Assembly (NCBI GenBank): GCA_905250885.1 | Contig: CAJNOQ010001136.1 | Coordinates: 1 to 35,407 of the forward strand | DNA length: 35,407 nt | From: Didymodactylos carnosus | Taxonomy: Eukaryota | Direction of reading: 5' to 3' | Shown: one piece after another, positions 3,205 to 35,407 of the stretch | How positions within the stretch are numbered: position 1 is the first letter of the stretch | Layout: every line of letters begins with the position of its first letter | Program-made: the position numbers and the translations under genes | The notes under the pieces: model-generated | Told to the model about the DNA's origin: nothing | Database searches by the model: none | What the model saw: the letters and a program-made list of their open reading frames with translations, nothing else

Positions 3205-3828
3205 TTATAGAAGAATGAAGTAAAAATTTACTTTTTTTTCCATTTGTAATTGTTGAATGCTTTTAACTGGTTGTGCGGGAAAAAATGCTTCTTTTGTTGG
3301 AGGTTTATTAACGCTCGAAACTGGTTGACCAAAAAAATCAAAATCAGCAAACGGACTTGTTACGGATGGTGGAGCCACTGGTGTTGGAGGTGAATTTTGT
3401 AAAAATGACTGTTGTTGTAGTTGTTGTTGTTGCATCGGATTTAGAGGAGACGGTAACAATGGCGGTGGCATATTAACCGGTGCAGTTTGCTGTTGAGGTT
3501 GAATAGGAGTCGGCGTTACACCGAATTGTGGGGGAACAGGCGATTGACGGTATTGTGGAGTTATACCGTATGGTTGTTGAGACTGACCTGGTATCGGCTG
3601 TTGACCAAATTGCGCTTGTTGTTGAAAGGAAATATTCGACTGATACTGTGGCTGTTGTGGTTGTTGAGGTTGCATGAACATCGGTTGAAATTGATTCGAT
3701 GGTTGGGTAGGTGCGTTGAATACTGACGATAAATCATTTGATGGTCCAGTCAAATTCGACGGTGTTGCTTGCACGTGTGGATTTGTACTGGATGTTGGCA
3801 CATTCCAAAGATCATCACTATCAATTAC
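3205..3828 (-). CDS. Dab-like terminal Q/P-rich exon (208 codons incl. stop; FADFDFF motif)
   Basis: Acceptor tatttttAG (AG at 3830-3829), in frame with ORF 3205-3801. Strongly Q/P-biased (QPQQPQQPQYQ...). The FxDxF-like FADFDFF and DPF-like motifs match the AP-2/clathrin-binding tails of Dab2-type adaptors. A further donor AAAAAA|GTAAAT near 3230 could extend the gene into a downstream exon. Confidence 0.55.
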   Translation of the reverse strand, partial: VIDSDDLWNVPTSSTNPHVQATPSNLTGPSNDLSSVFNAPTQPSNQFQPMFMQPQQPQQPQYQSNISFQQQAQFGQQPIPGQSQQPYGITPQYRQSPVPPQFGVTPTPIQPQQQTAPVNMPPPLLPSPLNPMQQQQLQQQSFLQNSPPTPVAPPSVTSPFADFDFFGQPVSSVNKPPTKEAFFPAQPVKSIQQLQMEKKVNFYFILL

Positions 3829-5405
3829 CTAAAAATATAAAATTTTATCTATATTCAAAATAAAACATGAATTCTAGAAAGTTTTTCTAATGTGATAAAA
3901 GAAGCGGTAAAATTATGAGAACTTAGTGATATTCTATGTGATAAATCAAAAGTGTTTCAGTATTTCAATAAAATTATGAAAAAACACAGTTCCTTTAGCG
4001 AAATTTTTATGATTCAAATTTTCACGAATCAAATTGAACCTCAATTGTTGTTGCTGTTAAAGAATTACGTACGTTAACACTTTTTGGTTGTGGTACTTGC
4101 GTTGGTGCAGGTGCTGGATCAAATCCAAACAAGTTCGTATTCGCTGGAAAAGGTTGATTCACTGGCGGTTGAACCGCCGCAGATGCTTCCCAAATACTTG
4201 GGGGCTGAAAAAAAATTGAAATTTTATTATTTGAGCAAATAATTAGACATTGAAAATACCGGCGCCGTTGTTCCTGAAGGAGTTTGATCGAAAAGATCAA
4301 CCGGAGGTTGAGTCTAAAAAATGACGAGAATATTAACCATAACCGAAAAGAATAAACCCTGAATCTAGACGCATTATGTGCCTGTTGAATTGTAGGTTGC
4401 TATTGTTGAATCAGTGAAAAAAAGTCTGGAATATACTCACCGGTACAGGTAAAACAGGCTAAAACAAGACGTTCAGCATTATGAAGCTAGACCAGACTTA
4501 TTTATGTACTTACCGGTGGTTGGGTTGTCTGCGGTGGTGTTACATCACTTGGTAATACCGTGGTTGGTGTTGCGGGTATTACAGGCGGCGTTACTACTGT
4601 TTCTTTCACTTTTTCAGTCCTATTGTTAAATTGTTCAAATGCTGTATCAAATAATTCTTTTAATGAAACTACAGTTAAGGCAGCCTGAAATTAACAAAAG
4701 GTATATATGCTTTAGTCTATTAGTAATCTCCTGTGTAATCTAAACTAACCGGTCGTTCTGTTTTGATTGCCCAAAACTGATGTCTGTCGTCGGCGGTATT
4801 GTACACATATCCAAATGCTCGTGCATCTTTCGGATCAGTAACCACAAATGATATTCGTTCAATTTCATGCGAGGCTACAGAAACCTATGTCATTATACAA
4901 TCAATTACGATGATAGTTAAGAGAATGATACCAAAAAACCTACCTTCGTTACTTCATCAGCTAATTTAACAGCAGACAGCGTTAAATTAATTTGAATTTT
5001 TTGCTTGTGATCACTTCTTGCTTTGGCGACAGCTTTTAATTTAAACATTGAATCTAAGCAAATTTTTTCATCACGATCGACTGATAAGTCCTCAGTACCT
5101 AAAAGATAATGAATAAGAATGAAATAACTTTAAACCTATTAAGCTATTTTACAAGATTAAAGCAAGATGTTATGCCAACACTTTCTTTATTTTAAATCTA
5201 TTACCCGACAAACTTTAGAATCTTGTTACTTACCAATAAGTTTTCCCTTAAATACCACACCATCTCCATCGAATTTTGTTGCTCCTGTAAGAAAAAGAAG
5301 TATAGAGGATGCTACAAAAAGAAAGTTAAATCTAGAAATACCAGGTGTCGATGGTTTTTTGGGTTCGTTATTATTCACGGTTGGAACTTGATCAACAGTT
5401 GTCAT
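3205..5405 (-). CDS. Gene span: Disabled/Dab-like PTB-domain adaptor (7-exon model, ~480 aa) with Q/P-rich C-terminal region
   Basis: Spliced minus-strand translation: MTTVDQ...KFDGDGVVFKGKLIG | TEDLSVDRDEKICLDSMFKLKAVAKARSDHKQKIQINLTLSAVKLADEVTK | VSVASHEIERISFVVTDPKDARAFGYVYNTADDRHQFWAIKTERP | AALTVVSLKELFDTAFEQFNN... This matches the Dab1/Dab2 PTB core (KLIGIDEV..DKLCQDSMMKLKG..KQKIFLTISFGG..HEISYIAKD..RAFGYVC..HRFVAIKT..LRDLFQLIYE). All junctions are GT-AG and frame-consistent. The C-terminal exons are Q/P-rich with NLFGFDPAP and FADFDFF motifs. Confidence 0.7.
4073..4204 (-). CDS. Dab-like exon (PPSIWEASAAVQPPVNQPFPANTNLFGFDPAPAPTQVPQPKSVN)
   Basis: Acceptor ttttttcAG (AG at 4206-4205). 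Donor AAC|GTACGT at 4072-4071 lies upstream of the in-frame stop at 4022. Contains a DPF-like FGFDP motif. The alternative is that the CDS simply ends at the 4022 stop. Confidence 0.5.
4260..4313 (-). CDS. Dab-like tentative micro-exon (TQPPVDLFDQTPSGTTAP)
   Basis: 54-nt segment that keeps frame, flanked by tttttAG and CCG|GTATTT. Supported only by splice-signal geometry and composition. Confidence 0.35.
4514..4684 (-). CDS. Dab-like exon 4 (PTB C-terminal helix, then a P/T-rich linker)
   Basis: Acceptor aatttcAG|gctgcc and donor CCG|GTAAGT. 171 nt. Encodes AALTVVSLKELFDTAFEQFNNRTEKVKETVVTPPVIPATPTTVLPSDVTPPQTTQPP. Confidence 0.7.
4750..4884 (-). CDS. Dab-like exon 3 (PTB core: HEIERISFVVTDPKDARAFGYVYNTADDRHQFWAIKTERP)
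   Basis: Acceptor acatAG|gtttct and donor CCG|GTTAGT. 135 nt, phase 0/0. Carries the Dab-family RAFGYV and FxAIKT signature. Confidence 0.75.
4944..5098 (-). CDS. Dab-like exon 2 (PTB domain N-terminal half)
   Basis: Acceptor ttatcttttAG (AG at 5100-5099) and donor AAG|GTAGGT (GT at 4943-4942). Phase 1 in, phase 0 out. Encodes (G)TEDLSVDRDEKICLDSMFKLKAVAKARSDHKQKIQINLTLSAVKLADEVTK. Confidence 0.75.
5234..5405 (-). CDS. Dab-like exon 1 (first ATG at 5405-5403, MTTVDQ...; ends phase 1 at donor G|GTAAGT)
   Basis: ATG in a caaaaATGa context. The upstream 'M' at 5444 in the ORF track is actually TTG. The exon codes KFDGDGVVFKGKLIG, homologous to Dab1 RFKGEGVRYKAKLIG. Donor GT is at 5233-5232. 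Confidence 0.55.
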
Positions 5406-6708
5406 TTTTGTATAACTTGCAATTGATTCTAAGTAAATAAGCAAAACATATTCATTTATAACTAATGGGATAGAAATACAACTATCAGTAAACCAAAAAC
5501 GGGTGCTCCTGCAACTTCAGAACTTACGATTTAGCGTATTATTACAATATAAACAGACAGGCAAAATTTATTTCGTTTTTTGTCATTTAACCTTGCGCTT
5601 GAGTGTTGAAAAAAAAAGAAGAAAATACTTAGATAAGAATTTTCAAAGGAGAAGAGTAAAAACGAGAGGACAACAAAGTGTAAATATCTGCATCTCTTTT
5701 GAAAAAGATAAAAACTATTATGGAGATGTTGTATATATGCGTGGTTAGTTATGATAGAAAAAAATGTGAAGAAAAAAATATATAAGAATACCATGTTTTC
5801 TTCTCAAAAATCACTGATTAGAAAGGGACAAAAGAATTTTTATAACACGCGGAAGTAAATAATGTTGAACTTTTGAACTTCAATATAAACTTTTATGTGT
5901 AAAAAAAATAATAAATAATAAATTCCCGATAATAGGTCAACTTCAATTTACCTTTTATAATCGTTTACGCAGATTAGAAGACTAGTCTGCAACATACAAC
6001 GTGAAACACATTATAGAATTATTATAAAAGAGCTTAATCTGTTATACTATTTGATTTTAAGCGTTTTTCGTTTGATATCATTTTTACCCCCTGAATTATC
6101 AGTATCTTACTAGCGTTGCTGACAAGTCTGAATTAATATTGCAACGTTAACTATTCAAAGAATTTTTTTATAAAATTCGTCTGAAGTAAATTCCTAAATC
6201 ATTATAAAAAAAATGTTCATTGTTAGGTTATTGGGAAATTTGTACTCATTAAATGTATAATCTTCAATTTGTTTTTCTGGGACTTTTACCGTGCCATAAA
6301 CAAGCCACTGATGAAATCAACAGCACCTCTTCTTCAAAAGCCGTGTTATTATTATAAAATTTTTCACGACCCCTCTAAAAGAATTTCTCTAGATTTTTCT
6401 ATCCAATCTTCTCGATGCTACCAAAATAGCAGTAAAAATTCTGTAGAATGTCATCGAACCATCTAGCAGATGAAAAAAAGCTGCTCGCAATAGAAGAGTA
6501 TCTGATTTTCTACTCTTGCTAGAAGCAGTATACCATCTCGAATCAAAAATACTGTAAAAGATATAAAGAAAGATCGCTCGTACAAATCGTATCGTATTAA
6601 GAATGGCTTTACTCAGGCAGATAGGTATGTATTTAGCTTAAATTGAAATTCAATGTACATATAATATTCCTGTTGCGATACTTAAGGAATTTATTAAATA
6701 AAAAATTT

Positions 6709-7135
6709 TTGAATATCTAGACTACTTGAGTATACATTGACGGAGTGTTGTATTTTTAAACGACTACTAAAGTTCAGGATAGACCTTGTTGTTCTTTATT
6801 TCTAAAAGAACTAACTGCTTTATGGATTAATACTATAAGTAAGTTACGGTATTTCGATATAGCAACGATCCGAATACTACGACAGAAGGTAAAATTGTTC
6901 TTCACGATCGTATGGAATCTTTTCACAAGAACTTTTAGTGGTCAACAAACAAAACTTTTCAGAGACTTTCAATAGTCAAAAAGACTATAAGATTAAGGAA
7001 ATGGGACGAAATACTGTTCATATTGGATAGTATCAAAAACGTTTCTAAGAGTAGTTGTCAATCGCAAATCCATCTCCTTTTCGCCATAGAAGAAAGAAAA
7101 GAAAACAGAATATAGAGAGAGAATAAACAATAGTA
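6709..7135 (+). repeat. Left TIR of the 3.9 kb element
   Basis: Direct comparison with rc(10168-10598). Confidence 0.8.
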
Positions 7136-9093
7136 AAGGATTATACAAAAAACGTGATGCTTGCTCATGATAGCCTATTATTAACTGGAATTATGTTTTT
7201 TAACAACAAAAGGACGACAAGAAAGTTAAACAGAAAAATTGTGTAAGAGTTCAAGCAAAACAGTTCATATCATCACACTTAAATACCCTTAGCATTTATC
7301 TCTTCTTAAAATCGAAAATCAACCTATCAAAATGTTTGATAACATCAGAACTGGCTTTACTCCGAAATAAAATTAGAGTCAGGACAAAAACAGTGAAAGG
7401 TTGCATCGTTATGAGAACCGCGCGTATCGATCTTTGTCTACACGAACAACATGTTGATTTCTTTTGATATTATTAACTTACTTAGTGCGCTAGCCGATAA
7501 TTTCATAGTTAATATTTATTTGATTAATTGCTCTTCATGAAATATTTACAAACTTGCTGCAAATAATGATGCCCGCTATAACTAATCACACCAGTATACG
7601 AAAAATTAATATATATACATGCAAAGTGGTTTAGTTTTATTTTTTGTTTCATTTTAATCCAGTATGTTACATACAGTGTATGAGATAAAGGTTGAAAACT
7701 TTATCAGTTTCAAATTACAACCCCATCTTTTTTCTTCTTCTTATAATACTTTAAAACTTATACCTTGTAAAGAGTAATGTTCGTGAAGAGCAGTCCATCT
7801 GGATCATTCAACGCCACTGAAATCGGAAAAATATGCGTTTTCTATATCCATACGTTGTTATTTTACTTACTTTTATTGAAAAATATTTTCTTTTATTTAC
7901 ATACAACAATCAAGAAAAATGCTATTTTTCTTTATATAAAACTACGATTTGTACGTAACAACATTGTAGCAATCGCATACGAAAATTCTAAAGAGATACG
8001 CCTCAGCTTTTATGCATTTACTTATATCTCTGTAGTGGTCGTCCACCTTCCTTCTGCGATTTAGTATTGTATCAGTCCACACAGCTACTTATAAGTGATT
8101 TTTTTTCAAAAACGCTTTTCCGAACCTAACACGACGTAACTTACCGTTAAATCATATATACAACCTTTTTCAAAAGGTAGTGCAAACCGGCAAAACGCGC
8201 TGTTCCATTCCAACAGCTTATACGTCATAAAAGCTCTAGTTATTCATGTCATAATACACACGATTACGCGATAAATTATGAACTTAGGCAATGCTGTTGT
8301 TCGTGCAAGTGGATCGCTTTGTTGATGTGGTGATAGTGAACGGAGTACATGAAATAAAATGAAGAAATATAAAACGATCCAGTTCCTGAGATCGGAACAG
8401 GAAAAGTAACTATTACCTTCGATCTGACATGAAAAATACGAGGATGACACGATGAACTGTATCTAATACAGAGTTTGTTGACAAACTCTAATTTTGGGCC
8501 ATCAATCTGGTGATCACTATTAAAATTCACAATCAATATGCTAGGAGTACTTGAGCGTGCCGTTACAAAACACATATTCGAGAGTAACACATTATTGTGG
8601 TAAAGTGGTAACTATTTCTTCATACAAGGAGTGTGATTTACTTATTTATTTAGTATCGGTATCAACTGTTGGGTAAAATGATCATCTGTACAATAAATAA
8701 TTTGGCAAGGAATGAGACAAGATATAAAACTTACAAAGGTTTCGAGACCATACTGCTAGGTTAAGAGTACCAATATCATTTATAGGAACAAAATTAAAAA
8801 ATGTCAAAATACTTTTGCCGAATTATTTACTGAAAAACAATTCAAACTGAGATTCGAAGCATCGGAACGCGCATCATAGATATCTTCTGTAAATGGACAA
8901 CTATCGCGAATATCTTCGATAGCATGGATGATCCAGAGGTGAGCAACTCCGGCTAGGTACAGCTCTAACTCAACTCCAACACTAGCTCTGCTAAGCAACC
9001 TAAACCCAACTCCAACTCCGTTTCAACTCCGAAGTGAAATCTATTCGTTCTTTTTCCTTCAGCGTGATGTGAGGTGTATCATTAGGCATGCAT

Positions 9094-9289
9094 CAGTTAC
9101 AGTTAACTGTAAAACTATAACTGTCATAACTGTAGGTAAATATTCTAGAGTGAGTCAGTCTTCTATGATTTGCATACATTTTAAGAACAGAGACATCCTT
9201 AAAATGTATGCAAATCGTACTAGACTAATCACTCTAGAATATTTGCCTACAGTTATGACAGTTACAGTTTTCACAGTAACAGTTAACTG
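9094..9289. repeat. Nested palindrome / long hairpin (outer arms ~60 bp, inner perfect 19-bp stem 9167-9185 / 9198-9216, 12-nt loop)
   Basis: Outer arms: CAGTTACAGTTAACTGTAAAACTATAACTGTCATAACTGTAGGTAAATATTCTAGAGTGA versus TCACTCTAGAATATTTGCCTACAGTTATGACAGTTACAG...TAACTG. Inner stem GATTTGCATACATTTTAAG / CTTAAAATGTATGCAAATC is exactly complementary. Confidence 0.8.
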
Positions 9290-9319
9290 GTAAAAAACTG
9301 TAACTGTTGCATACCTATG

Positions 9320-9595
9320 TATCATAGAGAGGTGCAGAATCTACCCGTTTGCGCCGACGACCGTTGAGAGAAAAAAACATTTTTTGGGGCAAAGTTTTGG
9401 AAAAACGAAGAATTATACGAAAATGCCAGAACCAGACATGTGTGATTAAACAGAAACAGTAGTTTTAGCAACAATAAAATCGCATTGTTTTGTTTCTACT
9501 TTTGTTTCATGCCAGGAAAATTTGATTATAATCTTTTACCCTTCGGGGAAATTTCCTAATCTCACGGGTAGATTCTGCACCTCTGGTATCATATG
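9320..9595. mobile_element. Small MITE-like unit (~275 bp) with ~32-bp TIRs nested inside the 3.9 kb element
   Basis: 9320-9352 ATGTATCATAGAGAGGTGCAGAATCTACCCGT versus rc(9560-9595) ATATGATACCAGAGGTGCAGAATCTACCCGTG. Confidence 0.55.
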
Positions 9596-9920
9596 TTATT
9601 ATATGCTGAACACACGTTTGTATCTCTCGCGACAAAAATAGATAAAAACCAAACAAAAGAAACTCTCGTGAAGAAAAGGAAATGGGACTAAAGAAATTGT
9701 GAACGAGACTTTTGGAGTTTGAGTTGACAAAATCTGTCATCAACTCAACTCTGGTCGTTTAGAAAGCAAACTTTAACTCTGCAAAAAAGACGCTTAACTC
9801 CGGAGTTGAGTTGTCCAGCTCGGGGACGATCAGCTGAAAACAAAATCTCTATAATTTGATTATTCTGTTAATGGGAAAAAGTCAAGGGGGAAAAAGCAAC
9901 ACTTCACTACACTATAAGGA

Positions 9921-10080
9921 CTTGTCCGCTATACCTCACTACACATCCACTATACCCCACTACATCTCACTATACCCCACTACGTCTCACTACACATCTA
10001 TTACATCCCCGTAACCACTACAAAGTCAGTACAAGGTCACTACCATAGTGGAAAAAGTGTAGTGTAGTGCAGTGTAGTGT
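9921..10080. repeat. ~10-bp minisatellite (CACTAYAYMYC units, ~12 copies) ending in its own inverted complement GTGTAGTGTAGTGCAGTGTAGTG
   Basis: Runs like ctcactacacatccactataccccactacatctcactataccccactacgtctcactacacatc ... then gtgtagtgtagtgcagtgtagtgttg. Confidence 0.7.
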
Positions 10081-10167
10081 TGTTTTTTCCGCCTTAGAAA
10101 AAGTCCAATTATCTCATGTTTCTTGTTTTCAACCACAACAAAAGGAGATGTACAAGCAAACAAACTA

Positions 10168-10598
10168 TACTATTGTTTATTCTCTCTCTATATTCTGTTT
10201 TCTTTTCTTTCTTCTATGGCGAAAAGGAGATGGATTTGCGATTGACAACTACTCTTAGAAACGTTTTTGATACTATCCAATATGAACAGTATTTCGTCCC
10301 ATTTCCTTAATCTTATAGTCTTTTTGACTATTGAAAGTCTCTGAAAAGTTTTGTTTGTTGACCACTAAAAGTTCTTGTGAAAAGATTCCATACGATCGTG
10401 AAGAACAATTTTACCTTCTGTCGTAGTATTCGGATCGTTGCTATATCGAAATACCGTAACTTACTTATAGTATTAATCCATAAAGCAGTTAGTTCTTTTA
10501 GAAATAAAGAACAACAAGGTCTATCCTGAACTTTAGTAGTCGTTTAAAAATACAACACTCCGTCAATGTATACTCAAGTAGTCTAGATATTCAAGAAT
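10168..10598 (-). repeat. Right TIR of the 3.9 kb element
   Basis: Reverse complement of 6709-7135. Confidence 0.8.
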
Positions 10599-11151
10599 TA
10601 TTGTATTAATACGATAATTCGTACGTGCTGAAGTTGCAGAAGCACCTGTTTTGGGTTTATTGATAGTAGTGTTTGTTCCGCGTTAGTTATAAATGACTAT
10701 TTTTTGATTATTTACTTAGAATCAATTGCAAGTTAAGTCAATGAATAATGTTTAGATGGAAACCAAATTAAAAAGTAATTTTTAATCTTTGAAGGCTTCA
10801 ATTATGAGAGAAATGTGGCATATGTGTGTAAACAAGTTAGCCACTAAATCTTGCTAATTTTGTTATTTTCGTGTGTAATTTTCTTCGATTCAGGAGATAA
10901 GAAAGTTTTTTTTTCATCAACGAAAGTGTGCTTTTGATTGAGATAAATAGTCGGTTTTATTTTTGAAGAAAAAAAGATATATCATTCAATTTTGAATGTA
11001 GCGAGTAATTGGTTGAGAAAAACATGAAATATATCTAAGCACAAATTCAGCAGAAAAATACATATTTTAATGTCATTTATCTGACCTAATGCATTAGAAA
11101 AGAAACAAACACTCACTGTACAGAGCAGTCTACATTTGAACCGCATGAAAA

Positions 11152-11806
11152 CTAATACACTAATTGATGAGGCATGCTGTTAGCTGTATTGAACATGGGA
11201 GCAGTTGGATAGGGTTGTTGCATTAATGGCATGCCACCACCCTGCATCTGCATTTGATAACCTTGTTGAACAAGAGGTGCACCTGGTGTTGACATCATTG
11301 GCCTATATCCGAATGTCATTCCACCGGTACCTTGTTGGTATGGATACATGTAGTTGGTTTGAGGCATTGATGTCGCTGGCGCTTGTTGAAATTGTTGATA
11401 AGGAGAACCAGTCATCGGCCCTAATCCTTGCATACCTGTCGTCATTACAGGTCGATACATCATTTGATTTTGTCGAGCTGCAGCTGCTCCCATTTGTGAA
11501 GCTGCTCCCATTTGTGCTCCCATTTGTGCTCCCATTTGTGCTCCCATCATCATGGCTCCATTTGCGGGTGCCATTGGTGATTGTCCTGGTAAAACCATGC
11601 CCGGCATTGTGGGAGGCATATATTCGAAACTCGAAGATGACGAACGACTTTGATGATATGCTGGCGCACCAGTCGAGCCAATGATACTTTGTGCACGGTA
11701 ACCATTTGAGTAATCTTGATGTAGACCACTAACAGGGTAGGATACGACAGCAGGAGAACCTGATTGACTATAACCACGACGGACAGGGCGATCAACTTTG
11801 ATTACT
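11152..11806 (-). CDS. LC-protein exon 4 (RVIKVDRPVRRGY... then an M/Q/G-rich tail with 3x GAQM repeats)
   Basis: Acceptor ttattctacAG (11808-11807). Continuous with ORF 11152-11619, whose 'M' is an internal residue. The tail is PMMSTPGAPLVQQGYQMQMQGGGMPLMQQPYP... Confidence 0.7.
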
Positions 11807-13320: not shown

Positions 13321-13660
13321 ATTCTAGACAGAATCTTACGCACTTCCTGTCTATTTCCTACTAGGATCTTACAGGATCCTAACATGTAGGATCCACCTAA
13401 TAACTTCCTAGCAGGATCCTAAAATGCTAGGATCCTACTAGAATTTCGCTTAAGTTTGTTTAAGATTCTAATAAAATCTTAGAAAATCCTATGACTTTCA
13501 GGTATACCTGATTTCATTAGGATTCTGTAGGATTTTATTAGGATCCTAAGAAATTAAAGCGAAACCTTAGTAGGATACTGGTAGGGTATATCTCGAATTC
13601 TGTCAGAAAAATTATAGGAATTTTACTAGGGTATATTGGATATTTATCAAAAGTCGAGTG
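13321..13660. repeat. Foldback-type imperfect palindrome centred on CAGGTATACCTG (13499-13510), studded with ~10 TAGGATCCTA (GGATCC) motifs
   Basis: Left arm ...cgcttaagtttgtttaagattctaataaaatcttag... mirrors right arm ...ggattttattaggatcctaagaaattaaagcg... The motifs ctaggatcct, aggatcctaa and taggatccac recur on both arms. Confidence 0.6.
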
Positions 13661-15400: not shown

Positions 15401-16094
15401 ATTAAAGATCTGCTGATGGGATGTTCAATGTCGCCATTTCTAGCGGACATAGCTTTAAATGAAGTTTTGCTGTATAACTGGGATTATCAAAAGTATCCTT
15501 ATATTGGATTAGCACGATATATTGATGATATACTGTGAGTTTCAAAAATGGATAAAAAGAAAATCCAGGAATTAGTAGCAGATCTAAATAGTAAGAATGA
15601 TTTACAATTTCACTTTTGAATATGAAGTAGAACACAAGATAGTATGTTTGAATGTCAGTATTCAGATAAATCAAATAAGTGAAACAAGAGAAACAAGCTG
15701 ATTTCAGAAAGCAACGTCTAGTTCAAAAGTATTAAATTTTGATTCAGATCATAGCTATGCTATGAAGCAAAATATAATTACTAATATGATGAAAAGAATA
15801 ATAATATGTGATAATTATTCTTATTATATTATTAACAATAAAGAAAACGAAAGAGATATGTTAGAGTTGAAACAAATTTTAAATAACAGTGATTATCCAC
15901 AAAGAGTAGTGGTAAATTTTTTCTAGAAAATTAATAAAAGTGGAAAAAACGAAAACATAAGTGAGAAAAAAGAGAATATACAATCCTATGTGGTAGTCAT
16001 TCCACATAGACATGTAGTAACTGAAAAACTCCGGCATATCTTAACAAAATTGAATATAAAAGTATATACAACTTTGAATCGTAGTTTAGGTTAG
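15401..16094 (+). pseudogene. 5-prime-truncated, frameshifted reverse-transcriptase fragment of a retroelement (possibly Penelope-like)
   Basis: Plus-frame translation IKDLLMGCSMSPFLADIALNEVLLYNWDYQKYPYIGLARYIDDIL carries RT motifs B and C (Y-x-DD). Downstream frames are broken (MDKKKIQELVADLNSKNDLQF / TFEYEVEHKIVCLNVSI). Near 15985-16090 there is a remnant SYVVVIPHRHVVTEKLRHILTKLNIKVY that faintly resembles a GIY-YIG domain. Nothing coding lies upstream of 15400. The fragment is interrupted by the MITE at 16095-16822 and decays further by ~16960. Confidence 0.55.
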
Positions 16095-16822
16095 GCCTCT
16101 TCAAATAACTCGGGAACGCAAAGAGATATCGAGAAACAGTTTAAAAGCAAATTTTCAGGAAACGCTCCGGACAGCTCATAAAGCATAATCAAAGACGAAA
16201 AAGATAAATTTCAGCCGGCATTGGTTTAAGGTTTTCCAGAAACCTTCTGAAAAACCTCAAAGCATCAGTGTTCTGTTGGACCACTTTTTCGGCGTGATCA
16301 CCGATATATGGCACGTTTTAGGTCTTTCCTGAAAATTTGCTTGAGTCAGCAAGAGATTTGATCGAGATATAAGGATTTTAATTTTTGCTAGTAACAGACG
16401 AAAAAACGGTTTTTCATAAAAATGCCTCTGGCGAAGCTATATTCATTTCCACACAAAAAAAAATGTTGCCACTATGCTTAGGGTAGTCCATTACCTATAT
16501 TCCATGGCATTTCGAGATTCCCAGAAATGTCTACTCGGAGATAGATACGTGCCCTGTCCGAACGACGATAGCTAGAGAGCCGGGACTTGCATAATTTTGT
16601 AGAATAACGTCCGGACTATCTACGCATGCAAAAAGATTTCTGCCATTGTATGTTAGTTTTCTGAGAACGGAGCTGGTTTTCCAAAGATCTACCTGGAAAA
16701 CCCCTCAAGATCCAGAAAAAAGTTTTTTTCTGCCATAGTTCGATGTGCCCCAGACTTGGCCATAAACTGACGAAAACCGTTTCTCGATATCTCTTTGCGT
16801 TCCCGAGTTATTTGAAGAGGCG
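16095..16822. mobile_element. MITE-like nonautonomous DNA transposon (~728 bp) with 47-bp TIRs, inserted into the RT fragment
   Basis: 16095-16142 GCCTCTTCAAATAACTCGGGAACGCAAAGAGATATCGAGAAACAGTT matches rc(16775-16822) with one mismatch. The interior is non-coding. Confidence 0.8.
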
Positions 16823-17640: not shown

Positions 17641-17986
17641 GAAAATCAGTTTTTCAAAACTTCTAAAAAATAAACAAAACCTTTGTTAATGAGGCAGGAT
17701 TGTAGCACGCACATTTCTGATTAAAATGAGATACCTCCCAGCTCTACACGGTCTTTCTTTGCAAAGTTGTAGAATTTACGAGAAAAGCCCTAAACTAATT
17801 TCTTATTCTGTAGCTTTGAGCTGACAATGAACATTTAGGGTTTTTCTTGCAAACTCTATAACTTCGCAAAGAAAGGTCGTGTAGAGCTAGGATGAGTCTC
17901 ATTTTAATCAGAAATCTGCGGACTACAATCCTGCCTCATTAACAAAGGTTTTGGTTACTTTTTAGGAGTTTTGAAAAACTGGTTTC
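17641..17986. repeat. 346-bp near-perfect palindrome (arms ~154 bp at ~88% identity, 39-bp spacer 17795-17833)
   Basis: Left arm GAAAATCAGTTTTTCAAAACTTCTAAAAAATAAACAAAACCTTTGTTAATGAGGCAGGATTGTAGCACGCACATTTCTGATTAAAATGAGATACCTCCCAGCTCTACACGG... versus rc of right arm GAAACCAGTTTTTCAAAACTCCTAAAAAGTAACCAAAACCTTTGTTAATGAGGCAGGATTGTAGTCCGCAGATTTCTGATTAAAATGAGACTCATCCTAGCTCTACACGA... Confidence 0.8.
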
Positions 17987-20120: not shown

Positions 20121-20447
20121 ATGGCGGATCCAAAATCAAGTGGCGTTTATCGCATTCCACCATATTATTACATCCACGTATTAGATCAGAATAGCAATGT
20201 ACCACGATTGGAAGTTGGTCCAAAAACATTTGTTAAACAAGATCATGAAAAAGTTCTCTTAGGCCCAGAAAAACATATTATCATTCCACCGCGACATTAT
20301 TGTGTCATTGAAAATCCAGCAATGAGAGATAAAAAAGGACAAGTGCTTATCGATACACATGGACAAGTTCGATTGTTACATGCCGATTTAGCAATTAAAT
20401 TTACACAAGAACCGTTTCCGTTGTTTCCTGGAGAAGTATTAAAACAG
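20121..20447 (+). CDS. MVP: MVP-A exon 1
   Basis: ATG 20121. Donor CAG|GTAAGC (GT at 20448-20449), phase 0. Confidence 0.88.
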
Positions 20448-23400
20448 GTAAGCCCCGGACTATTGTGACTGAACAAAAATAGTTATCGCACTCATGCAGA
20501 ATGTCAATTAAAAAAATATCTGATATGGGACCTGGAAGACCTTAAATAATAATGTAAATATTCATCATATTGATGCTGAAGCCATGTTTTTCTGATTTTT
20601 TAAGGCTGTGACTCCCTTAAAAGTGATTGAACCGAATTGTGCATTACGTTTACGAGCTGTGCTAGATTTTGTTGATGAGGCTGGAACTCCAATTAAAGCT
20701 GGTGATGAATGGCTATTTGAAGGACCAGGTAAGATAAACATGTTCATAAAAATTTCTTAATATCTACGAGTAATAAGGAAACAACAATCTGCCGATGATA
20801 GACCTAATTTTCTGATCGTCAACAACGGCACATCTCTTTTTATTCCGTCATTCTTTTAGCGATCTTCGCCAGTATCATTGTTTTTTTTTGTTTTCTTAGG
20901 CACCTATTATCCTCGAAAAGAAGTTGCCGTTGAAGAACAAATAAAAGCTACGATTTTGAAACCCACTGAAGCTGTTCGATTACGTGCAAAAAAAGAAATG
21001 ATTGATCGTGATGGTCAACCTCGTGAAACCGGTGAAGAATGGTTAAATAGAACGACTGGCTCTTACCTACCATTGGCTACCGAAGAAGTTGTCAAAGTTG
21101 TTCAGCCAATTGTATTAACAGATAAAGTAAGCAAATAAGATTAGCGAGATGTTTTGTTTTTGCTAAGAGAAATTATAAACATTTTTTTTTGCTGTTTAGA
21201 AAGCAGTTCACCTTCGAGCGATACGTACGTTTAAAGATACTTTTGGTAATAAACGTTTACATGGTGAAGAATGGTTAATATATGCCAAAGATACCGAGAC
21301 ATACATACCAGATGTTTATGAAGAAGTTGTTGGAGATATCATGGTGACAGCATTAACTTCACGACAATACTGTGTTATTTTGGATCCAGTGGGTAAAAAC
21401 GGAAAGCCACAATTAGGAAGAAAAGAACTTGTCAGAGTAAGTTGATTCGCTGTTTTTGTGACAATACAATTATTCTCAATTATTTGTCGCTTTTCAGGGT
21501 GAAAAAACATTTTTCTTACAACCGGGTGAGAAATTGGCAAAAGGTATCCAAGATATCTATGTATTAGAGGAAGATGAAGGACTTATTTTAAAATGTACCG
21601 AAGCGTTTAAAGAAGATGGAGTAAGTCTTCTAACACAATGATTATTAGTCTGAGTACCATTTATAATATCCATCTTCTCTCTCTTAGAAAATTATTCGAT
21701 CACCCGGTGATCGATGGATGATTCGTGGTCCAAAAGATTACATACCAGCTGTTGAATCTGAAGTTGTTTTACGCCGTAAAGCCATTCCATTGGATGTTAA
21801 TGAAGGCATATATGTACGTGATGTAAAAACGGGTAAAATTCGATCTGTAATTGGCAATACGTATTTACTAACGGAAAATGAAGAATTATGGGAAAAAGAA
21901 TTGCCAGTACAAACGGAACAATTATTAAATTTGGATCCAAGATATTTTGAAGACACTGAAAAACAACAACAACAACAAGCTCTCATACCACCACGAGACA
22001 AATCGAAAGTAATTACTTATAGAGTACCACATAATGCTGCCGTTCAAATGTACGATTATAAAGCAAAGAAAGCACGAATTGTATTCGGACCAGAATTAGG
22101 TAAACGAAGAACGCTTTTTGTTTCGTAAAGGAAATTTCATTACTATTTCTCGTTTATATCTGTAGTTATGCTTGGTCCAGATGAACAATTTACAGTGCTT
22201 AATTTGTCTGGTGGTAAACCCAAATTTCCAAATCGCATTCGTGCGATCTGCTTACTATTGGGACCGGAATTTTCATCGGATATTGTTACTATTGAATCAG
22301 CTGATCATGCACGTTTATCATTGAAACTGTCTTATAAGTAAGGATACAGCAATTTATTCTTAGATATTTATTCTCATTCTCCACTCTTTTTGTTTCAGTT
22401 GGCATTTTGATATTAAACATGACGATAATGAAAAAGTAGTTGCAAGTATATTTTCCGTACCGGATTTTATTGGTATGTGCTAAGATCATGTCTGATATTA
22501 AGTAATTGATAATACCTTCTTTTTTTAACAGGCGATTTTTGTAAAGCAATTGCAGCTAGAATTCGAGGTGCAGTAGCTGGTGTTAATTTCGATGATTTTC
22601 ATAAAGTAAGTGGTTGTTTCATGCAAGTAAACTGACAGAGAAGCGTTTTAGAAATACATTGGTGATTAGACCTCGAAAAGAGTTTTGACTAAGAGATTCA
22701 CATACTGATGGTCAGTTTACATACAACTTAGATAGTTTGTCAAATTGTCATGAATTTTTGGCCAAATTTTTGCTTAATTTAAAAAAATAACATATTGAAT
22801 TATTTATTTTGTGTATATTTTCCATTTAGAATTCAGCGCGAATAATTCGTGCTAGTGTATTTGGCATAGAAAAAGGCACATCAAAAGTGAATAATCGTTT
22901 TGTGTTTGCCCAAAATAATTTAGTATTAACATCCATTGACATCCAATCAGTTGAACCTGTTGATCAACGTACTCGAGAGGCTTTGCAAAAAAGTGTACAA
23001 TTAGCCATTGAAGTGCGTACTTACTAAATGAAAATACTTAAAATAATTTTGATTTGTTGTTTTCGTTTTAGATTACTACAAATTCACAAGAAGCCCATGC
23101 CAAGTAAGTTAATCATTCTTCTCAAATACATTCTTTTAACGATTACAAGATTTGCATAATTCACTTTCTGTTTAGGCATGTTGCTGAAAAAACTGAACAA
23201 GAAGCTCGTGGTCATTTGGAACGACAAAAAATTCATGATGAAGCTGAAGGTAACAATGCACTCTATTAATTATTTCTCCTAAATGTTTCTTTTGTTCATA
23301 TAGCTGAGAAAGAACGTCGTAATTTGTTGTTATTGAATGCATTATCTGCTGCTGTTGAAGCAACGGGACAAGCGAAAGCCGAAGCTCAAAGTCGTGCAGA

Positions 23401-23931
23401 ATCAGCGAAAATTGAAGGTAACATCCATCTCCTGGATAATAACTAATAGCTCTAATTTTATTGTTATTTTTGTAGGTGAAGCAGCTGTTGATACCGCTCG
23501 TCTTCGTGCTGAAGCATCTAGAATTGAAGCTGAAGTTGAATTATATCGTTTAACAAAAGCACGTGAATTAGAATTAGAATATTCAAAACTAACATCTGAA
23601 TTAGAAGTTGATCGAGCACAACGCATGACAAATATTGAAATAGAAGAATTTCAAAAACATGTTGCAGCTATTGGGGCAAAAACCATTCAAGGTGAACTTG
23701 TTGATCTGCACTACTATAACATCATTCTACAACTATATATTTTTTTTTTCAGCAATTGCCACATCTGGTCCAGATATGCAAGTAAAATTATTACAATCAT
23801 TAGGTATCAAATCAACATTAATCACAGATGGTCGATCGCCTATAAATTTGTTTAATACAGCCATGAGTATGGTTGGTAATATCCAACAACCAACTTCCGC
23901 AACATCGTCCTTACTTTCAACAACCAATTAA
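20121..23931 (+). CDS. MVP: Gene span: major vault protein paralog A (15 exons, 2568 nt CDS, ~855 aa)
   Basis: Spliced translation aligns along its whole length to major vault protein. Exon 1 ORF: [47 protein letters not shown]...HYCVIENP...[12 protein letters not shown]. Later exons code [92 protein letters not shown] and the stop. All 14 introns are GT-AG (59-180 bp) and phase-consistent. Confidence 0.92.
20605..20728 (+). CDS. MVP: MVP-A exon 2 ([42 protein letters not shown])
   Basis: Acceptor ttttttaAG (20603-20604). Donor CCAG|GTAAGA (GT at 20729-20730), phase 1. Confidence 0.85.
20900..21126 (+). CDS. MVP: MVP-A exon 3
   Basis: Acceptor ttttcttAG (20898-20899). Donor AAA|GTAAGC (21127-21128). 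Matches ORF 20878-21138. Confidence 0.85.
21200..21436 (+). CDS. MVP: MVP-A exon 4 ([11 protein letters not shown]...[23 protein letters not shown])
   Basis: Acceptor gctgtttAG (21198-21199). Donor AGA|GTAAGT (21437-21438). 237 nt, phase 0/0. Confidence 0.85.
21498..21620 (+). CDS. MVP: MVP-A exon 5 ([41 protein letters not shown])
   Basis: Acceptor cgcttttcAG (21496-21497). Donor GGA|GTAAGT (21621-21622). Confidence 0.85.
21688..22099 (+). CDS. MVP: MVP-A exon 6
   Basis: Acceptor tctcttAG (21686-21687). Donor TTAG|GTAAAC (GT at 22100-22101), phase 1. Matches ORF 21718-22128. Confidence 0.85.
22166..22337 (+). CDS. MVP: MVP-A exon 7 ([21 protein letters not shown]...[12 protein letters not shown]-)
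   Basis: Acceptor atctgtAG (22164-22165). Donor AA|GTAAGG (22338-22339), phase 2. This avoids the in-frame TAA. Confidence 0.85.
22399..22472 (+). CDS. MVP: MVP-A exon 8 ([26 protein letters not shown])
   Basis: Acceptor tgtttcAG (22397-22398). Donor G|GTATGT (22473-22474). Confidence 0.85.
22532..22605 (+). CDS. MVP: MVP-A exon 9 ([25 protein letters not shown])
   Basis: Acceptor ttttttaacAG (22530-22531). Donor AAA|GTAAGT (22606-22607). Confidence 0.85.
22830..23012 (+). CDS. MVP: MVP-A exon 10 ([12 protein letters not shown]...[20 protein letters not shown])
   Basis: Acceptor tccatttAG (22828-22829). Donor GAA|GTGCGT (23013-23014). Confidence 0.85.
23062..23093 (+). CDS. MVP: MVP-A exon 11 (32-nt micro-exon [11 protein letters not shown])
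   Basis: Acceptor tcgttttAG (23060-23061). Donor AA|GTAAGT (23094-23095). Confidence 0.8.
23176..23249 (+). CDS. MVP: MVP-A exon 12
   Basis: Acceptor ctgtttAG (23174-23175). Donor GAAG|GTAACA (23250-23251). Confidence 0.85.
23304..23417 (+). CDS. MVP: MVP-A exon 13 ([39 protein letters not shown])
   Basis: Acceptor ttcatAG (23302-23303). Donor GAAG|GTAACA (23418-23419). Confidence 0.85.
23476..23691 (+). CDS. MVP: MVP-A exon 14 (coiled-coil cap-helix region)
   Basis: Acceptor ttttgtAG (23474-23475). Donor CAAG|GTGAAC (23692-23693). Part of ORF 23337-23855. Confidence 0.85.
23753..23931 (+). CDS. MVP: MVP-A exon 15 (...[43 protein letters not shown]..., stop TAA 23929-23931)
   Basis: Acceptor ttttttttcAG (23751-23752). 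Matches ORF 23659-23931. Confidence 0.88.
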
Positions 23932-26782: not shown

Positions 26783-27250
26783 TTAAAGAGCACCAGCTCC
26801 ACCACCTAATAAACTTTGACCAAAACCCATGAGATTTATTGGACTACGACCATCTGTAATTAATGTTGATTGTAAGCCAAGTGCTTGTAACAGTTTTACT
26901 TGTGTTTCTGGGCCCGATGTGGCAATAGCTTGGATTGTATCTGCACCAATGGCTTCTACTTGTAGTTGAAATTTCTCAATTTCTATTTTTGAGATGTTTT
27001 GTTTTTTATTTATTTCAAGCTCATTAGATTCTCGCAAAAATTTAATTTCTGCTTCACGTGCTAATTTCAAACGTTCTAATTCGGCTTCGGCTTCAATTTT
27101 CGTTGCCTCAGCTTTTAAACGTGCTTGTTCAACGGCTGCTTCGCCTTCAATACGTGTTGATTCTGCACGACTCTGAGCTTCGGCTTTGGCTTGACCAGTG
27201 CTCTCAACGGCAGCGGACAGCGCTTGTAATTCCAAAAGAGCTTTACGAAC
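26783..27250 (-). CDS. MVP: MVP-B exon 10 (equivalent to A exons 13-15; stop at 26785-26783)
   Basis: Acceptor tgtatatAG (27252-27251). Continuous with ORF 26783-27235. Confidence 0.85.
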
Positions 27251-32499: not shown

Positions 32500-33390
32500 A
32501 GCCGTGTTACAGAAAGAATGGCGTAGTTTTTATTTTCAGTTTTTCTCCTCTTCCTTTGAACTCACAGAGCTCATTTTATTACCAAAAGATTCTCCATTCA
32601 TTTCTCTACCAAATGGTGTATAGAAGACGATCCTAAGGTTTGAGACACTGTCTTAATTGAACAAACATCGAAATGTCTGTAAAACTTAAAAATTTTTTCC
32701 GATGATAGTTTTGAAGTTTGAACTTCATTTTGAAAGTGATTGGAAGAAGATAGCACATCATTTCTTAGGACGTTTAGATGTCCTCTTTCAGATGGCGCAA
32801 GACTCATTTTCTTCTCATCAGTATAATGTGGTAAAAATGACTAGTTAATAACTGGAAGCCATTACTAAACAAAATGCGCTAGTTTCAACATCGCCATTAT
32901 TCAGAAAAGTTACATCAAAGGTTTCGCACATGAGTCGAGTAGACCAAACATTTGTCTTCAAATGACGCAAGAATGTGCTTGATTGGTTCAGTTTTGTCTG
33001 AGCAATATTCATTTTACAAATAGCCCTAAAATGCAGGTTGAAAAAGCTGAAAAAACGGTCATAGGGCTTTTACAAAAATCATTACTGAAAACAGAGAAAT
33101 AACTGTTGAATATCCGCAATCGGTAGAGAATTTTAAGAGCTACATTTTGTCCTACTTGCTCCAGACACAACGCATACGTTCAACTTTATACTGATAAAAT
33201 ACACTTTTTTATGTTTTAAGTTTTTCGGACATTTCGATGTTTGTTCAGTTAAGACAGCGTCTCAAACCTTAGGATCATCTTCTATACAGCATTTTGTAGA
33301 GAAATGAATGGGGAATCTTTTGGTAATAAGATGAACTCTCTGAATTCAAAGGAAGAAGAGAAAAACTGAAAATAAAAATCACGTCATTCT
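32500..33390. mobile_element. ~890-bp nonautonomous element with ~190-bp TIRs (~90% identity)
   Basis: 32526-32695 TTTTTATTTTCAGTTTTTCTCCTCTTCCTTTGAACTCACAGAGCTCATTTTATTACCAAAAGATTCTCCATTCATTTCTCTACCAAATGGTGTATAGAAGACGATCCTAAGGTTTGAGACACTGTCTTAATTGAACAAACATCGAAATGTC... versus rc(33190-33385). The extension CGTTACAGAAAGAATG is shared at both outer ends. Confidence 0.75.
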
Positions 33391-35407
33391 TTCTGTAACG
33401 CCCGTTAGTTCGGTTTTTTGCAACAGCCATCACTGTGTTCTGTGCATCATTCAATAATTTAGGCTGAAATTTTCATCATGATCTATTCAATATACAGCAT
33501 GCAACTTTTAAACATTCCATTCAAATCGGATGCACCGTGCAGGAAATATAACTTTTGTATGGAGGTGTGTACCCATCCATAGTGTGCATTTTTCAACAGT
33601 TGGTAAATGGAACATCAGAATTTTTTGCTCGTAAACTATTTTTTCATGGCTAATTATAAAAAAAAAAATCACGTTTTCAAAAAATCGACTTTCTTTACAA
33701 GTTCATGAGAAAAAATTTTGATGAATATTTTCTCTATCCAAAACTTATTGTGTTATATACAGCTCGATGCAATTCGAAGCGCCATTTCCGAATATGTCAT
33801 TGTTATCGAGAACAAACGCTATATTCTGGAGGTTTCCACGGAAGCTTCAGCAGTCCCAGAGCTCCCTGTAAAATTCGACCCTCTGGCCTAACCAGAACGC
33901 ACGAAGATCTTTTTCTTTCGTGGGTTTGTTGCTATCATTTGTGTTGTTGCTATCACTGTTTTAGACATAGGGATCGTCGAAAACACACTAGTGGAATTAG
34001 CAGATTTTATTTATTTTCGTTCAATAGTTATTCACAAAATAGCCAAGAGAATTGTTCTTTTAATTCGATACTAGATGAAAGAAATATTTTATGCCATTCG
34101 ACAGCGAATGTCTTGAAGTCTATTTTTCTTTATCTGAATCTACATCAAGTTCACTTTTGATTTTTTGTCAAATGTCCCCATGAATGCATGTTGTGTCGCC
34201 AGGTGAGACCATCTGCACTTCTTAACCCGGTGGTTATTGAGCGTCGAGACGGCTAGTGTGTCCCATTCTTGAAGATCCTATCATCATTCTTTCGCTACTT
34301 TATTTCATTTCATTCATTTACTCTTTCTTCCATTTTCTTCGGAAGGGAAATAGAAACCATTATCACAAAAAAAGAATACAAAACCGACAAAAAACCTAGT
34401 TTTTTACAACCGAGTTGGTTACATTGTAAGGGTATATCCTCTTTTGAGAAAAGATTCTCATTTTTAGTTAAACATGGTGCATGTATGATGGAGTGAAGTG
34501 ACTTCTACAATGTAAACTCCCAGCTTCCGACGACTTTTCGCTGAGATGATATGAAATTTTTATGATTTTTCACTTTACATTGAAAAAACTTTTTTGATTT
34601 TTTACATTCTGAGATATCTTCCCAGGTATGTGCGTTGAAATTTTAAAACCATGGCGCTAGTTTAATAAGCAATCAAATATTATGACGGCGATGAATTTGC
34701 CATGCACAGTATTGTAACCGTTACTTTTTAACGATGTAAAAATATCAGACTATATGTCGGTTAAAATAGTTTTTTAAAACCATTAACTGAAAAAAATCAC
34801 AAATTTTAATACTCTCACTGGGCTAAGCGCTACTGGCTTTTTCTATTAGCAGCATTATTGCTCAAAAGAACAATCGTCATATTTTTTCGGTATCGTGTCA
34901 CTAGCTGACAGTCAATTGCAATAGATTCACTTCAGTAATCAATAACAATAACTCTAAATTGAATCATTTAAAAAAATCTACAACATTCGTCTTCTGAATA
35001 AGTATTGCTGGAAAACACTTTTTATTTTACCAAGAGGTGAGAAGATTAGAAGAAATATTTGAAATGTGTTAATGCTATCTATCCGCACGTACCAATCGCT
35101 ATGGCATAGCTACCATTACACATCTAACGTAATGCGTGACGTTTTTTCTTTTTGTTGACATTCTGTCTCTACCTATGTCTTTTTATCCAATAAACAACAA
35201 AAAAATTGGCCAAAATAAATGAATGAAAAATTTGTTTGTTGATTATAATTTTTTCACACAACAAAAAAGAAGACAAGAAACCACGCGCAAGACTAAAGAA
35301 AAACGATAATTTTTTATGTATGTGCGCATACAAATTAAAAATAGAAGAAATTTTTGGGGTTCACTTCGGTGCACGGAAACGAGGATCTAAGGGTTTTGCT
35401 ACGCATG

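Follow-up and report, generated by a model that had tools for sequence, protein, structure and literature searches.

The long inverted repeat spanning positions 5413 to 10735 of the 35,407-nucleotide stretch of Didymodactylos carnosus DNA analysed here (hereafter, the window) is tentatively best explained as an older inverted duplication with arms of at least 570 nt each, in which arm-to-arm gene conversion may have kept the inner 432 nt identical while the outer 137 nt diverged. The locus is a real but fairly ordinary repeat architecture, and its annotation should be corrected to show three MITEs nested in a long inverted repeat, not a Foldback transposon whose interior is built as hairpins by design.

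Structure of the inverted repeat

The repeat is intergenic, lying between two minus-strand animal genes (PTB-like on the left, Q/M-rich on the right), and consists of the following parts.

Left arm, 6704-7135, plus strand; perfect from 6709, with one mismatch in 6704-6708 (AATTT)
Right arm, 10168-10599, minus strand; perfect over 10168-10594
Spacer, 7136-10167; 3,032 bp, unique and non-coding
Outer segment A, 5413-5549; 137-nt non-coding repeat with stops in all frames
Outer segment A', 10599-10735; directly contiguous with the right arm
Indel segment, 5550-6703; 1,154 bp between A and the left arm, with no counterpart on the right side

The near-identical inverted ends of ~428 bp described in the first-pass annotation of this DNA are real: 6709-7135 and 10168-10594 match over 427 nt with 0 mismatches, and their termini are TTGAATATCTAGACTAC, as given there. 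The right end had been placed at 10598. The symmetric end is 10594, or 10599 when a 5-nt outer extension, AATT[T/C], is included, which brings the arms to 432 nt with one mismatch; the pair reaches 447 nt at 98.7% identity once a weak AT-rich tail is counted. The arms are unique complex sequence, and TRF (minimum score 30, 6690-7150) detected no tandem subrepeats in them. A single arm folds no better than shuffled sequences (z = -1.9). Arm GC is 32%, compared with 29-31% in the flanks, and the lack of the clear enrichment that GC-biased conversion might leave is a counterpoint to conversion. We also considered whether each arm is a separate insertion of a ~430-bp element and rejected this, since neither arm has a TIR or TSD of its own.

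Inverted homology continues outside the arms, where A' is an 86% inverted copy of A (19 mismatches). This outer homology was absent from the first-pass annotation. The right arm and A' form one contiguous block of ~570 nt (10168-10735), and the left side carries the same block in two parts, 5413-5549 and 6704-7135, with a gap between them. With the uninterrupted right arm as the reference, the junction between A and the left arm is exact to within 1 nt. Either the left arm gained the 1,154-bp segment that fills the gap or the right arm lost it. This segment has no TIR, TSD or protein match, and, lacking the first two, it is ruled out as a transposable element insertion.

The inner arm and the outer segment differ sharply in divergence, with mismatches at 1/432 and 19/137 positions, respectively (Fisher p = 1e-11), and the switch between the two levels falls exactly at the 1,154-bp indel. 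A single age of duplication therefore cannot account for both. As judged from the sequence, the continuation of the inverted homology beyond the originally reported unit points to a local inverted duplication.

Spacer content and nested MITEs

The interior had been described as having no credible ORF, and all of our searches agree with this. The longest interior ORF is 104 aa and has no Pfam match, a six-frame scan of the spacer (E<=1) returned 0 Pfam families, and stop-free segments of at least 35 aa from 5550-10167 returned 0 homologs at E<=0.01 in a collection of 5.8 billion proteins. Neither the Pfam nor the protein searches revealed a transposase or other coding remnant inside the unit. 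Structured RNA genes were likewise absent in Rfam searches at gathering thresholds and in ARAGORN.

The first-pass annotation also interpreted the interior as a set of concentric hairpins, and this organisation does not hold. Its outer pair (8945-9050 facing 9715-9830) reduces to a single 11-nt complementary word, AACTCAACTCC, a match that is equalled in 4 of 300 shuffles and missed by blastn at E<=0.01. What is present instead are three small units in succession, each flanked by a TSD of its own.

MITE 1, 9083-9317; 235-bp palindromic unit with TIR TAGGCATGCATCAG…; exact abutting 8-bp TSD TGTATCAT at 9075-9082 and 9318-9325
MITE 2, 9327-9585; 259 bp, hAT-type, terminus (C/G)AGAGGTGCAGAATCTACCCGT; exact 8-bp TSD GTATCATA at 9319-9326 and 9586-9593
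MITE 3, 9884-10096; 213-bp unit bounded by inverted repeats and holding a 10/20-nt minisatellite; exact 9-bp TSD GAAAAAGTC at 9875-9883 and 10097-10105

MITE 1 contains the palindrome reported at 9094-9289, which is genuine (84% self-complementary) and has a full extent of 9083-9317. As RNA, the palindrome has an MFE of -131 kcal/mol (z = -20.8). Permissive Rfam searches matched both strands of 9083-9317 to several plant hairpin models that are unrelated to one another, all below threshold (best 58 bits for miRNA families including MIR7993 and MIR2593, threshold 100). These are generic hairpin matches only.

The MITE-like unit noted near 9320-9595 corresponds to MITE 2, which has a perfect 21-nt TIR pair (9328-9348 and 9564-9584) and a CAG/TAG-type terminus that we take to be hAT-like. 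The family terminus CAGAGGTGCAGAATCTACCCGT was found in 19 metagenome contigs, and of the 10 copies that could be assessed, 8 are flanked by an 8-bp TSD carrying no more than one mismatch. By these sequence features (CAGAGGTG… terminus, 8-bp TSD), the family is classed as multi-copy and hAT-type. The longest related copy (1,336 bp, L011) is too short for a transposase gene, and the 19 contigs have nothing in common with the arms or the spacer.

MITE 3 accounts for the minisatellite (9925-9992 by TRF) and its reported inverted cap. Both exist, and the cap is a 31-nt TIR pair (9884-9914 and 10065-10095; 27/31 matching) that none of 500 shuffles equalled. The 9-bp TSD of this unit would suit Mutator-like elements equally well. 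MITE 2 resembles hAT-superfamily MITEs in its terminus, 8-bp TSD, small size and multi-copy family, and MITEs 1 and 3 have TSDs of 8 and 9 bp; an autonomous partner or transposase was not identified here. At least one of the three is hAT-type.

The 35-kb window has three clear MITEs flanked by TSDs, and all of them fall in one 1-kb stretch of the spacer (9.08-10.10 kb), where two struck the same 9-bp target. Beyond these units the spacer has no inverted symmetry, and an ancient larger palindrome with residual symmetry in the spacer was accordingly rejected. The nested hairpins are three independent MITE-type insertions with no intrinsic design.

A proposed inverted duplication homogenised by gene conversion

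In the explanation that we tentatively prefer, the intergenic region would have acquired a non-coding inverted duplication, and with it a spacer-bearing palindrome, through a replication template switch or from an ancient transposon. Intrachromosomal gene conversion between the arms would then hold the inner, uninterrupted 432 nt at near-perfect identity. The 1,154-bp indel would act as a barrier to conversion, severing the outer 137 nt from the rest of the arm, and this segment would have drifted to 86% identity because it was both severed and too short for efficient recombination. The 3-kb unique spacer has accumulated the three MITE insertions and, by extension, could be inverted by recombination between the arms.

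The repeat has the features expected of a palindrome maintained in this way, in that inverted arms surround a unique spacer without a TSD, and arm identity is far above that of the co-duplicated neighbouring segment. The known conversion palindromes of primate X/Y chromosomes and of organelles have arms of 9 kb to 1.45 Mb and often carry genes. The palindrome described here has arms of 0.43-0.57 kb and is non-coding and intergenic, and we infer conversion, the role of the indel as a barrier and inversion of the spacer from one sequence. To suppose that conversion maintains 0.43-kb arms separated by a 3-kb spacer is an extrapolation from palindromes of kilobase to megabase scale. The unique spacer, absent TSD and arm identity far above that expected from the age of duplication are shared with primate X/Y palindromes and organellar inverted repeats (PMC3723533, PMC8600007, PMC8327919), and conversion that holds palindrome arms >99.9% identical is well documented (PMC3723533, PMC8600007). 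As a counterpoint to conversion, a recent long-TIR insertion beside an unrelated 137-nt repeat would also produce perfect arms and a diverged flank.

Alternative explanations

The main alternative, possible though somewhat less likely, is that the repeat is a non-autonomous, long-TIR cut-and-paste transposon, either a recent 3.9-kb element (6709-10594) or one of 5.3 kb (5413-10735) that is older and has TIRs of at least 570 bp, which would be mobilised by a transposase encoded elsewhere in the genome. The transposon-like unit of the first-pass annotation stands as far as its long inverted repeat and non-coding architecture are concerned, but neither a TSD nor a second copy was found. The TATTAA motif proposed as a TSD lies 9-11 nt outside the arms in AT-rich sequence and does not abut them. 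The only symmetric abutting repeat at the arms is AATT, which, being palindromic, reads equally as a continuation of the inverted repeat, and there is no abutting direct repeat of at least 5 nt at 6709/10594 or 5413/10735. TA/TA flanking an ACTTGC… terminus at 5415/10733 is possible, TA being palindromic. However, a recent insertion, to which the perfect identity of the arms would be suited, should show a perfect TSD.

No second copy of the arm or unit was detected by self-BLAST of the 35-kb window or in IMG/VR and the JGI metagenomes (sets that do not include the source genome), and translated ORFs of the arm and unit have no match in the 5.8-billion-protein collection, with no transposase remnant. 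The earlier annotation had proposed that a unique TIR with no TSD would argue for a local inverted duplication; half of this combination, the missing TSD, is what we find. Nothing shows that the large unit is mobile. The genome does host active-looking DNA transposons, as the three MITEs with intact TSDs attest, and a related species lacks the region of the element in its syntenic interval, both of which favour a transposon. However, the older homology ends exactly at the right arm, a coincidence with a probability of ~0.3-0.5% for a chance insertion into the ~1.4-kb A…A' interval, and an empty-site test across the unit was negative. On this test, in which 5550-5800 and the reverse complement of 6450-6708 gave a chance-level score, we rejected the idea that the unit had inserted into a longer repeat already present.

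The termini fit none of the transposon families that we tested. Foldback-like elements form multi-copy families with 7-9-bp TSDs, and the two TIRs of one element usually differ from each other. The large unit resembles Foldback-like and other long-TIR elements (Drosophila FB, Galileo 2-TIR and Meloidogyne Tm1) in having TIRs of hundreds of bp and a non-coding interior within a few kb, but differs from them in its unique-sequence arms that are 100% identical, in the absence of a TSD and in having no other known copy. Its TIRs are long, but they are not built of composite subrepeats and have no abutting 7-9-bp TSD. A non-coding interior enclosed by long TIRs is standard anatomy for non-autonomous long-TIR elements such as the Galileo 2-TIR copies, Galileo TIRs measure 0.3-1.2 kb, and the longest Galileo copy has 95% TIR identity (PMC3573991). 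TIR identity in Tm1 averages 93% and is 100% in 5 of 61 elements (PMC3169594). TIRs of Foldback-like elements are composite, with tandem subrepeats or multiple domains (PMC3169594, PMC3573991). Members of the Spy group (PHIS superfamily) produce no TSD, insert between AAA and TTT and have the terminus 5'-GGANNNNG, and some Spy families, including one in a rotifer, have long TIRs without subrepeats (PMC4122938). The large unit shares the absence of a TSD with Spy; however, membership was rejected, since neither the AAA/TTT target nor 5'-GGANNNNG occurs within ±6 nt of either boundary pair.

An unlikely alternative is a very recent local inverted duplication without ongoing conversion, in which a replication template switch or break-induced copying placed a copy of 6704-7135 beside A' (or the reverse), with A and A' derived from an unrelated older event. 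Identical arms, abrupt arm ends and the missing TSD are all compatible with such an event, as are the many other palindromes and inverted repeats in the window. However, the copy must have landed exactly at the end of A' from a template 1,154 bp away from A, and copying primed by A/A' would have duplicated the sequence from 5550 onwards, not from 6704 onwards. This scenario also requires more independent events than the conversion model.

A functional hpRNA (endo-siRNA) locus is a still weaker candidate, and we consider it very unlikely. Read-through across both arms from the upstream minus-strand gene, whose stop codon is at 11152, would yield a perfect 427-bp dsRNA that could be diced into small RNAs. 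The unit lies directly downstream of a presumed poly(A) signal, an AATAAA on the minus strand within A' (10661-10656), ~500 nt beyond the right-hand gene's stop codon. The two arms could pair perfectly over 427 bp, so a hairpin RNA is structurally possible; in a mini-construct of the arms, 96% of bases are predicted to pair, at an MFE of -750 kcal/mol. Like known hpRNA loci, the unit has a long, perfect inverted repeat that would be capable of forming dsRNA if transcribed, but its 3-kb loop is far longer than those of known hpRNA genes. In addition, the arms match no Rfam family, and their perfect identity can be accounted for without function. A role as hpRNA is possible in terms of modelled structural potential. 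An assembly artefact that made a false inverted duplicate is scarcely credible, since, although zero mismatches over 427 nt is artefact-like, fold-back read artefacts are palindromes without a spacer, whereas both arms here join unique sequence and enclose a spacer of 3 kb that is unique, asymmetric and interrupted by three insertions with TSDs.

Genomic context and implications

The left-hand, PTB-like gene is on the minus strand; its ATG is at 5405, and segment A lies upstream of it at a distance of 8 nt. Long perfect inverted repeats are known to promote replication fragility and inversions and to give rise to dsRNA. Because this one lies immediately upstream of a conserved gene, it could influence the stability of the surrounding genome or its regulation. 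If gene conversion is responsible for the identity of the arms, a heterology (the 1.15-kb indel) would bound concerted evolution inside an inverted repeat, and the process that maintains the large palindromes of sex chromosomes could extend to very short autosomal ones. The broader view of the locus, as a small intergenic palindrome of a compact invertebrate genome kept homogeneous while its outer segment diverged by 14%, with an invertible spacer that lies just upstream of the promoter of a conserved gene and serves as a strong local hotspot for MITEs, is an improbable one that we offer as speculation.

The window contains a second old inverted duplication, consisting of two convergent MVP genes with ~70% identity. 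Their best matches are to metagenome ORFs (78-83%), with 57-66% identity to bdelloid rotifers. In the nearest relative (L002), the left-hand gene and the MVP pair are kept, three different genes lie between them, and the inverted repeat region is absent. We rejected this interval as an orthologous empty site because it is too diverged to be informative. The convergent MVP pair is conserved in related species, which shows that inverted duplications both form and are retained in this lineage and counts in favour of the preferred explanation.

Structure of the long inverted repeat

The long inverted end copies noted in the first-pass annotation are exact: 6709-7135 pairs with 10168-10594 as its reverse complement through all 427 nt, with 0 mismatches, and their termini read TTGAATATCTAGACTAC, as annotated. 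The pairing reaches 5 nt further out (AATT[T/C]), to 6704 and 10599, at the cost of one mismatch. The arms contain no tandem subrepeats, and one arm alone folds no better than shuffled sequence (z = -1.9). The absence of a credible ORF from the interior was also borne out, the longest in the 3,032-bp spacer being 104 aa. A six-frame Pfam scan of the spacer at E ≤ 1 returned 0 families, and a query concatenating all stop-free segments of at least 35 aa from 5550-10167, run against 5.8 billion proteins, gave no homologs at E ≤ 0.01.

Inverted homology extends beyond these arms. Immediately right of the right arm lies a non-coding 137-nt segment (A', 10599-10735) that matches, in inverted orientation and at 86%, a segment beyond the left arm (A, 5413-5549). 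A' is contiguous with its arm; on the left, 1,154 bp (5550-6703) with no TIR, TSD or homolog lie between A and the arm, and with the right arm as reference A and the left arm join to within 1 nt. Because A' abuts its arm and the left-hand pieces rejoin, the whole of 5413-10735 is one inverted repeat, each arm ~570 nt long and one of them carrying an indel. Divergence differs sharply along it, with 1 of 432 nt mismatched in the inner arm versus 19 of 137 in the outer segment (Fisher p = 1e-11), and the change point coincides exactly with the indel.

MITE insertions in the spacer

The interior had been described as a concentric stack of hairpins. Its outer pair (8945-9050 with 9715-9830) reduces to one 11-nt complementary word, equalled in 4 of 300 shuffles and unreported by BLAST; the real structures are three separate, adjacent units, each with inverted termini and an exact flanking direct repeat of host DNA.

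MITE units within the spacer
9083-9317: MITE 1, 235 bp, palindromic; termini TAGGCATGCATCAG…; 8-bp TSD TGTATCAT
9327-9585: MITE 2, 259 bp; 21-nt perfect TIR; 8-bp TSD GTATCATA
9884-10096: MITE 3, 213 bp, contains the minisatellite; 31-nt TIRs matching at 27/31; 9-bp TSD GAAAAAGTC

MITE 1 and MITE 2 are successive insertions into one 9-bp target, TGTATCATA. For the 9.1-9.3 kb palindrome, a permissive Rfam scan gave just generic long-hairpin miRNA models, on both strands and far under threshold. Across the whole window, inverted termini directly flanked by an 8-bp direct repeat occur in 4 cases, versus 0.07 expected from shuffles; three are these units, and in the remaining one (1332-1561) the repeat is the low-complexity TATATATA. 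All three clear TSD-flanked MITEs of the window are packed into one 1-kb stretch of the spacer (9075-10105), which points to a local insertion hotspot.

The terminus of MITE 2 has exact matches in 19 AT-rich contigs (L003-L021; mean GC 30%) from one group of JGI metagenomes (Ga0116226-Ga0116231), with no other similarity between these contigs and the window. From the metagenome copies, the family terminus is CAGAGGTGCAGAATCTACCCGT. They measure 79-264 bp, except for a single 1,336-bp copy in L011; 8-bp TSDs flank 8 of the 10 assessable complete copies. We take this terminus with 8-bp TSDs to be the signature of a hAT-type MITE.

Origin of the inverted repeat

Both components of the feature are familiar: a long inverted repeat, or palindrome, and the hAT-type MITEs nested in it. 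We tentatively favor a local inverted duplication that is old and has arms kept alike by intrachromosomal gene conversion. Where large palindromes have arms more than 99.9% identical, arm-to-arm conversion is the accepted cause (PMC3723533, PMC8600007); by analogy, conversion may act on arms as short as these. We infer that it would hold the contiguous 432-nt block identical, with the indel as its barrier; the 137-nt block would have diverged because the indel isolates it and its length is insufficient for efficient recombination. The same recombination between arms would be expected to flip the spacer occasionally.

The principal rival, a non-autonomous long-TIR transposon, is somewhat less probable. 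No direct repeats of at least 5 nt abut the arms; the proposed TSD, TATTAA, lies 9-11 nt outside them, and the sole symmetric candidate, AATT, is palindromic and equally readable as a continuation of the inverted repeat. The window holds no second arm copy, and neither IMG/VR nor the JGI metagenomes contain the arm's terminal 22-mer. Composite TIRs rich in subrepeats, together with TSDs of 7-9 bp, define the Foldback-like families (PMC3169594, PMC3573991), and the large unit (6709-10594) has neither. In Spy elements there are no TSDs and the TIRs may be long and simple, but an AAA|TTT target and the terminus GGANNNNG are required (PMC4122938); the unit shows neither. Perfect identity between its TIRs would be unusual even among long-TIR families: Tm1 pairs average 93%, and reach 100% in 5 of 61 elements (PMC3169594). 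A transposon landing in an older A…A' structure would need to hit the precise inner edge of A', and a test for homology continuing across the unit from the A side was negative. The Foldback-like reading finds partial support: the long inverted repeat and non-coding interior stand, the proposed TSD and intrinsic hairpin interior do not.

A very recent template-switch duplication is unlikely. Still more doubtful is a functional hairpin-RNA locus, and misassembly is hardly credible. The locus is of modest interest, for its sharp 100%/86% identity boundary and the MITE insertions clustered in its spacer.

Other inverted repeats and genomic setting

The region is generally rich in inverted repeats. 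A second long one, similar in structure to the main one but smaller and more diverged, has 186-nt arms (32506-32691 and 33214-33399; 91% identity) that lie 522 bp apart, with no clear TSD (CCGT, 2-nt offset). A 349-bp near-palindrome at 17643-17985 (82% self-complementary, 39-nt center) has no flanking TSD. A 48-nt TIR pair (16095-16142 and 16774-16821; 98% identity) bounds a 631-bp interior, and further palindromic or inverted-repeat-bounded units lie at 13429-13579, 2174-2271, 1314-1350/1543-1579 and 15731-15778; convincing TSDs were found at none of these five.

The window is eukaryotic in character, with scarce ORFs, GC of ~34% and no tRNA or Rfam matches. It contains spliced genes, and the unit sits between two minus-strand genes.

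Genes in the window
3205-5405 (-): PTB-like gene, start at 5405; PTB-like first exon (…FDGDGVVFKGKLIG|gtaagt), Q/P-rich C-terminal exons
11152-11619 (-): Q/M/P/G-rich low-complexity ORF, gene end at 11152; no Pfam match
20121-23855 (+) and 26783-30177 (-): diverged, convergent Major Vault Protein (MVP) paralogs, ~66-86% nucleotide identity exon by exon

Segment A lies 8 nt upstream of the PTB-like gene's ATG, and A' bears a minus-strand AATAAA ~500 nt downstream of the right-hand gene's stop. That right-hand ORF includes a perfect 12-nt tandem repeat (11503-11547; 3.8 copies) encoding a QMGA repeat. The nearest relatives of the MVP genes are metagenome ORFs (78-83% identity), and the named matches are bdelloid rotifers (57-66%), which points to a small metazoan as the source. 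Since the same convergent pair occurs in two related metagenome contigs (L001 and L002), the inverted duplication of these genes is both old and conserved. The 570-kb contig L002 also carries the PTB-like ortholog (900-2349), beside genes for a GPCR, a sulfite oxidase and a sugar-phosphate transporter, none of which the window contains. The L002 interval from the PTB-like gene to the MVP pair consists of three compact genes; its counterpart in the window is 14.7 kb of repeat-rich DNA, so this region is lineage-specific.
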